The notes beneath the pieces were generated by a model. It saw nothing but the letters and a program-made list of their open reading frames with translations, was not told the origin of the DNA and did not search any database. 22,043 nucleotides of DNA, taken from a virus. Taxonomy: Duplodnaviria; Heunggongvirae; Uroviricota; Caudoviricetes. Position numbers and translations under genes: made by a program. The stretch lies in the IMG/VR virus record IMGVR_UViG_3300045049_000270; one strand, 5' to 3'. Shown here in pieces: positions 14,177 to 15,436 of the stretch. Within the stretch, counting starts at the first letter, position 1. Each line of letters opens with the position of its first letter.

Positions 14177-14287
14177 ATGGACAAACTTACCAAATTTCGT
14201 GTAGTAATGGAAATAATAAGAACTAGCGCAGCCATAATCGCAGTTACCGTCAACTGCTGGATGATTCACCACATTCTGTCCAAATAA
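14177..14287 (+). CDS. Small hydrophobic peptide (36 aa; not in ORF track)
   Basis: AAAGGTG RBS; MDKLTKFRVVMEIIRTSAAIIAVTVNCWMIHHILSK. Confidence 0.55.
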   Translation: MDKLTKFRVVMEIIRTSAAIIAVTVNCWMIHHILSK

Positions 14288-14870
14288 GATTTGGATCGTA
14301 ATCCAATCTCATCAAGAAATAATACCCTTCCCAATTGGGAGTAATGCACGGTTCATAGCTGCCATCAGAATAACTTACTGTTTTAATGCCACAATCCAAC
14401 GCTGAACCTACAGAAACATAAGAAGCAAGAATTTCATTGTCATTTAGCATTTCACTAACATGCAATGACATCGGGATGCTCCAATTCCATGGTTCATGAA
14501 TGCATGTTGAAAGTATGTTAAACACCGGCAATGATGCGATTATATGATTGCCGGCCCCCCGTCTACTAAAACGTGCTACCAAAGACGTAGCCGATATAGT
14601 AGAAGTGTATAAAAACTGACGTAGTGATTGATATTCTTTAAATTGGCGAGTTTCTGATGGACAATTTTCAATTATTGTCTCAATTAATGCTTCTGCTAAT
14701 TTCTTGGTGTCTGATGTCGTATATCCACAAGACACGTCAACTATTGGATATCGCATTATACTTAATGCTGACACGCTCGAACTATTTTGACGTACCTCAA
14801 TCGAGTAAATTAATGAGTCACGCGATTCAGCCGGTTGAATGCTGGCTATAGCTTTCAAAAGCTCGTTCAT
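14250..14870 (-). CDS. Truncated T4 gp23-like (major capsid/HK97-fold) paralog 2 (206 aa)
   Basis: VARFSRRGAGNHIIAS...ALDCGI; TAATG coupling; similarity judged by eye against the recalled gp23 sequence. Confidence 0.65.
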   Translation of the reverse strand: MNELLKAIASIQPAESRDSLIYSIEVRQNSSSVSALSIMRYPIVDVSCGYTTSDTKKLAEALIETIIENCPSETRQFKEYQSLRQFLYTSTISATSLVARFSRRGAGNHIIASLPVFNILSTCIHEPWNWSIPMSLHVSEMLNDNEILASYVSVGSALDCGIKTVSYSDGSYEPCITPNWEGYYFLMRLDYDPNLIWTECGESSSS

Positions 14871-15436
14871 TAAATGAATTTTACGTATTCGTAATAATGA
14901 TCCCAATGTGGCAATTCGCACAACATAGAATATCCATTGGGAAAATTCGCCACCACCAAACCAGCATCAACCATAGACAAATTGGGATTATTATAAACCA
15001 CAATCATTTCATCGTTAGTCAATTGTTCTTCAATATGCCAACTCATAGTGGCAGAATTAAACCACCGATTGTTCTTGACTAAGTCATACATTTCAAGCGA
15101 AACAAACACTTGATTACCCGCACCACGATAGCTTTTAGCAGCAATGCTATTTGCTGCTTTATTAGCAGCAAGCATGACGACATCAGAATATTCAAGTTGC
15201 TTGGGATCTTTTGAAATTTCAGTGGCTTTGAGCCCTCGAATAAGCTTCAGAGCTGAAGCCAAAACCAAGTCCGCGTTGTGCTCTCCGTGATTCGTGAGCA
15301 ACGCTGGTGTATGCTGACCAATTTTGATAGAATCAGCTCTACCAGTCAGTATATCGAAATGTACTTCGATGCTATCAAAATGATCGTGATCATTTGCCAA
15401 TTGCACATTGGCAGCGATTGATTGTAATGTTGTCAT
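14870..15436 (-). CDS. Truncated T4 gp23-like paralog 1 (188 aa)
   Basis: IAAKSYRGAGNQVFVS...MVDAGLVV; colinear with paralog 2. Confidence 0.65.
   Translation of the reverse strand: MTTLQSIAANVQLANDHDHFDSIEVHFDILTGRADSIKIGQHTPALLTNHGEHNADLVLASALKLIRGLKATEISKDPKQLEYSDVVMLAANKAANSIAAKSYRGAGNQVFVSLEMYDLVKNNRWFNSATMSWHIEEQLTNDEMIVVYNNPNLSMVDAGLVVANFPNGYSMLCELPHWDHYYEYVKFI

Follow-up and report, generated by a model that had tools for sequence, protein, structure and literature searches.

Tailed-phage heads and encapsulins are all built from proteins of the HK97 fold. T4 gp24 provides the precedent for a second, diverged HK97 paralog beside a major capsid protein, here gp23. In the T4 head, subunits are fastened within and between capsomers by the N-terminal arm of gp23 (residues 66-105), the insertion domain, and linkers equivalent to the E-loop (PMC9546572). 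Truncated forms of the fold have also been described. The Family 4 “A-domain encapsulins” (DUF1884), which are of unknown function, have genes that immediately follow an enzyme gene (10.1101/2021.03.18.436031). The core of the fold is moreover a target of immunity, as Avs7/8/10 receptors envelop the A domain and P domain of unassembled capsid protein (10.64898/2026.01.04.697583). Our literature search returned no description of phage mini-capsid paralogs, capsid mimics, or decoys.

Here, we examine a stretch of 22,043 nucleotides from a tailed virus (Caudoviricetes; IMG/VR record IMGVR_UViG_3300045049_000270), referred to below as the window. We show that it carries two real, paralogous accessory genes descended from a gp23-type major capsid protein. 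Their small products, P0001 and P0002, are termed minis throughout.

Arrangement and surroundings of the mini genes

The initial annotation proposed two tandem paralogous genes at this locus. Both reading frames are present (Table 1), and their products align along their whole lengths with 27% identity over 193 columns (BLASTP, E 1e-13), placing RGAGN at residues 104-108 in each. The annotation was also right that, at 188 and 206 aa, the products are less than half as long as a capsid protein. The frame of P0002 is additionally open as a GTG-extended reading of 223 aa, and P0001 is on record as a protein of a 523,572-bp contig. The TAA of P0001 shares one base with the ATG of P0002, while the TAA of the upstream phospholipase D-like (PLD) nuclease gene directly adjoins the ATG of P0001 without a gap. 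Because of this stop/start overlap and abutment, we consider the nuclease gene and both mini genes to be translationally coupled.

Table 1 Features of the window around the mini genes (position 1 is the first nucleotide of the window).
Feature	Position	Strand	Remarks
Mini capsid paralog 1 (P0001), 188 aa	14870..15436	minus	ATG start
Mini capsid paralog 2 (P0002), 206 aa from ATG	14250..14870	minus	open reading frame
RGAGN motif of P0001	15113-15127	minus	
RGAGN motif of P0002	14547-14561	minus	
Nuc-type PLD nuclease gene, upstream of P0001	15437..15979	minus	PLDc_2 E 3e-23, HxKxxxxD motif
Envelope-directed run before the minis	15437-16671	minus	135-aa lipoprotein-like protein, 62-aa and 48-aa membrane peptides, PLD nuclease
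Start of the same-strand run	16079..16671	minus	135-aa lipoprotein-like protein (lipobox LTGC), 62-aa membrane protein
Sigma-70-like promoter match	16024..16051	minus	10 of 12, extended TG; consensus match only
Intrinsic-terminator-like hairpin	13054-13086	minus	13 pairs then T run
GNAT acetyltransferase gene	10005-10421	minus	diverged
GNAT acetyltransferase gene	16833-17360	plus	diverged
CTAAATA	8689-8695	minus	
CTAAATA	9150-9156	minus	at start of ORF beginning 9159
CTAAATA	13028-13034	minus	just upstream of gene start 12994
CTAAATA	14158-14164	minus	just upstream of gene start 14153

The minis sit among genes for a secreted nuclease, an HNH-like protein, a dCMP deaminase, GNAT proteins, and small ORFs, with no head genes in this set. 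The PLD nuclease has a Sec signal peptide that is conserved in four orthologs, and it may act as a periplasmic nuclease that excludes incoming DNA. The sigma-70-like match sits ~45 nt upstream of its gene. On the other side of the minis lie the HNH-like gene and the dCMP deaminase gene, after which the hairpin ends the run. The two GNAT genes that flank the region are conserved in position in relatives, at 45-56% identity.

Also accurate in the initial annotation is the absence of the heptamer CTAAATA upstream of the pair; the closest copy on the minus strand, at 14158-14164, is downstream of it. The heptamer occurs five times in the window against 2.4 expected, a count reached by 6 of 100 shuffles, and four of the copies are on the minus strand. 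It may serve as a middle or late promoter element. The T4 late-promoter motif TATAAATA was considered and set aside, since its single occurrence in the window is what chance would give.

The minis derive from a gp23-type capsid protein

Searched exhaustively with HMMER, a set of 1.84 billion representative proteins yields a mini family of 13 matches, all but one between 179 and 223 aa. The exception, P0012 (320 aa, repetitive), was dropped as a likely false match, leaving 12 members in the family alignment (A3). In this alignment, Arg104, Gly107, Asn108, Tyr148, Asp157, Gly159, and Tyr181 are invariant or nearly so.

Each of the window minis, searched alone, has Pfam Gp23 (PF07068) as its top match and covers the same profile positions. 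The scores (E 0.007 and 16.2 bits for P0001, E 0.0027 and 17.6 bits for P0002) lie below the curated cut-off of 24.4 bits in both cases. The same profile comes top for 8 of the 12 family members, with a best E of 3.7e-5. The 12-sequence family profile finds four T4 gp23 entries (E 0.001) as its sole credible matches in the PDB, through two colinear segments, RGxGN-IIxS and Y-x-DAGI; a profile of the two minis alone gives no credible match in the same database. The gp23 motifs that the initial annotation had pointed to are thereby borne out, with RGAGN and Y...DxG of the minis aligning with RGEGN and YKGPNEMDAG of T4 gp23.

Profile-profile comparison by hhalign links the family to T4 gp23 with a probability of 87.5%, to the capsid protein of a relative that itself carries minis with 90.8%, and to a small capsid-protein profile with 96.5% (E 8.6e-10, 165 columns), pairing mini residues 15-188 with residues 176-381 of the 407-residue capsid protein. 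T4 gp24 alone gives no profile match (probability 0.5%). In the reverse direction, a capsid-protein HMM run against every open segment of the window that reaches 40 aa (259 in total) retrieves only the two minis (E 1.2e-4 and 6.2e-4), the next-best segment having an E of 0.34. Judged from their sequences, the minis are homologous to the gp23-type capsid protein yet fall outside the curated PF07068 family.

Several other searches came back empty. Megablast and tblastn of the region, P0001, a 504-aa neighbor, and the whole window gave no match among 50,697 phage records, and a word-indexed homolog search with P0001 returned nothing beyond the query itself. DUF1884 is absent from the minis and their family members at E values up to 1. 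Cleavage of the prohead-protease type follows an L/I-x-E rule. The “SIEV” segment was considered as such a site and rejected, being unconserved in the family and wrongly spaced for the rule.

Predicted structures retain the HK97 core

AlphaFold2 models built on the 12-sequence family alignment reach a pLDDT of 92 and pTM of 0.89 for P0001 and 88 and 0.85 for P0002, and show the same order of secondary-structure elements. The P0001 model runs from P-domain strands through a short spine helix (residues 55-67) and an A domain (residues 83-175) to a last P strand. P0002 ends in a disordered acidic/Ser tail (residues 200-206).

Foldseek matches of the mini model are to HK97-fold proteins only. With VIA-align, the top match for both minis is T4 gp23 in the unexpanded head (7vrt), with Z 15.8 and an rmsd of 2.7 Å over 172 of 188 residues for P0001, and Z 16.1 and 3.1 Å over 183 of 206 residues for P0002. 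Comparisons with mature gp23, gp24, HK97 gp5, and encapsulins give Z values of 10-13. A structure search of the Atlas hits a Gp23 cluster (TM 0.78, 182 residues); an ESM Atlas feature search produced no usable match. The initial annotation had likened the minis to the C-terminal part of gp23. Its claim of homology stands, while the restriction to one part does not, as the models contain the whole HK97 core (A domain, P domain, and spine helix) minus peripheral elements.

Read against the T4 elements described above, alignment ranges and models show that the minis have no propeptide, N-terminal arm, insertion domain, or E-loop-equivalent linkers. The N-terminus begins at the core, the hairpin at residues 20-42 has a six-residue turn, and the spine helix is shortened to ~13 residues. 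Relative to a gp23-type capsid protein, the minis lack a stretch of ~20 residues behind the second A-domain helix, and we infer that this gap corresponds to the A loop. Because the elements that fasten subunits to one another are missing, the minis are presumably unable to build a shell. Co-folding of P0001 with P0002 scores 0.01 against a mark of 0.32, a result that gives no indication either way on binding. BFVD also contains small, unnamed HK97-like phage proteins, 149-250 aa in length.

Sequence profiles, profile-profile alignments, fold comparisons, and gene context together give strong support to the proposal that these are truncated gp23-like paralogs outside a structural module, the profile and AlphaFold/Foldseek checks having produced both gp23 and HK97-fold matches. 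We regard their identity as gp23-derived, minimal HK97-core paralogs as secure.

The full-length capsid gene lies elsewhere in a related phage

A relative, G001, is represented by a complete genome of 523,836 bp with terminal repeats. The family profile matches it in exactly three places, namely two minis and the capsid gene. The latter is its one full-length Gp23-family gene (407 aa, E 2e-81, L005:1039-2259), lies ~180 kb from the mini pair, and encodes a protein with 36% identity to the T4 gp23 core and the motif RRGAGN. G001 yielded no second full-length paralog of the gp24 type. The 407-aa protein has at least 8000 matches with E at most 1e-10; it is 79-96% identical among the matches listed (120), many of which are on contigs of 370-576 kb. 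These figures indicate that half-megabase phages with an almost unchanging capsid protein make up a very large, widespread group.

G001 also contains shorter ORFs with partial matches to Pfam Gp23. One of 164 aa (L007:1483-1974, ~256.5 kb) matches positions 6-34 with 25.5 bits, above the cut-off; it was tried as a member of the mini family and proved unrelated (hhalign probability 0.1%). Two others lie in the 232.6-233.0 kb region, one of 112 aa (L009:977-1312) with a short match to positions 301-326 and one of 138 aa (L009:1315-1728) with a short match to positions 169-198. The clade may thus hold several capsid-derived mini-genes.

The minis are locally the fastest-evolving genes

In four diverged phage lineages a PLD gene is followed by a mini gene, with two minis in the window and in L002/L004 and a single one in L011/L012 and L013. 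No PLD gene lies near two distant family members, which are carried by other large-phage contigs and have metabolic and accessory genes as neighbors. Between the window and L002, the dCMP deaminase is 90% identical, the PLD nuclease 84%, and the HNH-like protein 82%, compared with 41% for mini 1 and 31% for mini 2. Nonsynonymous divergence follows the same pattern, with a dN (NG86) of 0.51 and 0.85 for the minis and 0.07-0.10 for the PLD nuclease and dCMP deaminase. NG86 dS is saturated in this comparison and omega is therefore not measurable; L011 and L012 are identical across the gene, as are L013 and L014, and so supply no close pairs for dN/dS. Given these identities, the dN values, and the patchy distribution of copies, the minis are intact, fold-constrained, partly dispensable genes that evolve faster than anything around them.

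Possible roles of the minis

The initial annotation proposed three candidate roles, namely decoys that titrate capsid sensors, dominant-negative poisons against competing phages, and minor vertex proteins. The absence of fastening elements, the location outside a head module, the fast evolution next to a capsid protein that hardly changes, and the patchy occurrence make a stoichiometric head part a disfavored role and favor an accessory, probably conflict-related one. We infer that the minis are not core head parts. Our leading, still tentative reading, to which we give somewhat less than an even chance, is that they are shell-incompetent mimics of the capsid core that act in conflict with hosts or other phages. 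The minis would then be soluble, cytoplasmic stand-ins for unassembled capsid protein that occupy a partner recognizing the A/P core. Host sensors or other host factors that read the HK97 core are one possibility for this partner; the capsomers of a co-infecting T4-type phage, which the minis would poison, are another. Duplication into two diverged copies might widen the set of partners or split it. By analogy with the receptors described above, Avs7/8/10-like proteins are a plausible candidate class of partner. A bolder extension, which we consider unlikely, is that large T4-type phages deploy such mimics as pseudo-ligands that blunt Avs7/8/10-like receptors or sabotage the head assembly of rival phages, and that the minis belong to a wider, undescribed family of them.

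Several observations sit uneasily with mimicry. Because capsid sensors activate on binding, a plain mimic would be expected to trigger them; to inhibit, a mimic would need the further ability to keep the sensor from firing. The conserved positions of the minis are the fold-core positions conserved in true capsid proteins, so that no new functional surface stands out, and their fast evolution could reflect weak constraint rather than an arms race. Nor does mimicry explain why coupling to a secreted nuclease is conserved. The region of gp23 recognized by Lit, Gol, lies in the N-terminal part of the protein. Lit and CapRel, offered in the initial annotation as examples of sensors that decoys might titrate, are therefore poor fits, since the minis have no gp23 N-terminal part and sensors activated by binding would be triggered, not titrated.

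Another candidate role is that of a minor component of the head or prohead, in which retained A-domain contacts would attach the minis to the phage's own capsomers; they could be vertex, plug, or capping subunits, could determine head size, or could be assembly chaperones for the large capsid. In its favor, the fold is common to gp23 and gp24, structural comparison ranks the prohead (unexpanded) form of gp23 first, T4 assigns its paralogs gp23 and gp24 to hexamers and pentamers, and G001 pairs one full-length Gp23-family gene with no detected gp24-like vertex protein. Yet the mini genes belong to no head module and are coupled to that of a secreted nuclease, and the propeptide, N-arm, and E-loop linkers that hold T4 subunits are gone. 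Their 31-41% identity contrasts with 84-90% for neighboring genes and at least ~80% for the capsid protein among the matches listed, and two lineages do without the second copy. We judge this role improbable, though not negligible. Lower still, at roughly half that chance, we place an enzyme-associated HK97 scaffold of the Family 4 encapsulin type, in which a mini binds, stabilizes, or holds the PLD nuclease or another envelope-directed product of the operon. It would account for the succession of an enzyme gene and a truncated HK97 gene with abutting or nearly abutting stop and start codons in four diverged lineages, a two-gene layout shared with Family 4 encapsulins, one of which co-purifies with its enzyme (10.1101/2021.03.18.436031). 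A nuclease with a conserved Sec signal, however, should leave the cytoplasm unfolded, and the minis have no export signal. The nuclease is also 84% conserved where the minis are at 41% and 31% (a fivefold to ninefold difference in dN), the distant family members have no PLD neighbor, and the four lineages are relatives whose shared gene order may simply be inherited.

A less specific explanation is that the minis are decaying or nearly neutral duplicates of a capsid gene with no particular function. Divergence faster than that of any neighbor, patchy occurrence with loss of one copy in some lineages, and the further small ORFs with capsid-profile fragments in G001 are all in keeping with decay. 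On the other hand, reading frames are intact in 12 of 12 members at 17-42% identity, start-stop coupling and motifs are kept, and an alignment of only 12 sequences is enough for a model with a pLDDT of 92, all of which argue that the fold is under selection. A dN of 0.5-0.85 with saturated dS likewise implies an omega well below 1. We therefore hold decay to be as doubtful as the scaffold role.

Comparison with known systems

At ~190 residues, a conserved protein consisting of the A and P core comes close to a minimal HK97 fold, and the minis would represent a head protein recruited for a role other than head building. If they are indeed mimics that engage capsid-sensing immunity or the assembly of rivals, they would constitute a new type of counter-defense or competition factor and could be used to explore how the HK97 core is read by sensors. 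Should they instead be minor head parts, they would bear on how genomes of 0.5 Mb are encapsidated.

Classical encapsulins and HK97 gp5 share the fold with the minis (Z 10-12) and differ in being 260-280 aa long, in having an N-helix or N-arm and an E-loop, elements that the minis do not have, and in self-assembling. T4 gp24 resembles the minis in structure (Z 12.3 and 12.1) without a profile match. It is a full-length protein (427 aa) with every fastening element, its gene belongs to the head module, and the prohead protease cleaves it; the minis have under half its length. Family 4 encapsulins likewise lie just downstream of an enzyme gene, as the minis do behind the PLD gene in four lineages. 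Those proteins are cellular (Thermococcales and a few Bacteroidetes) and are reduced to the A domain, roughly a third of an HK97 protein. The minis, by contrast, have no DUF1884 match, combine A and P domains, are phage-encoded, and derive from gp23. The nearest relatives are T4 gp23 and the clade's own 407-aa capsid protein, which have the same P-domain strands, spine helix, and A domain and the same RGxGN and Y..DAG motifs; compared with both, the minis are less than half as long, lie outside the head module, and evolve fast.
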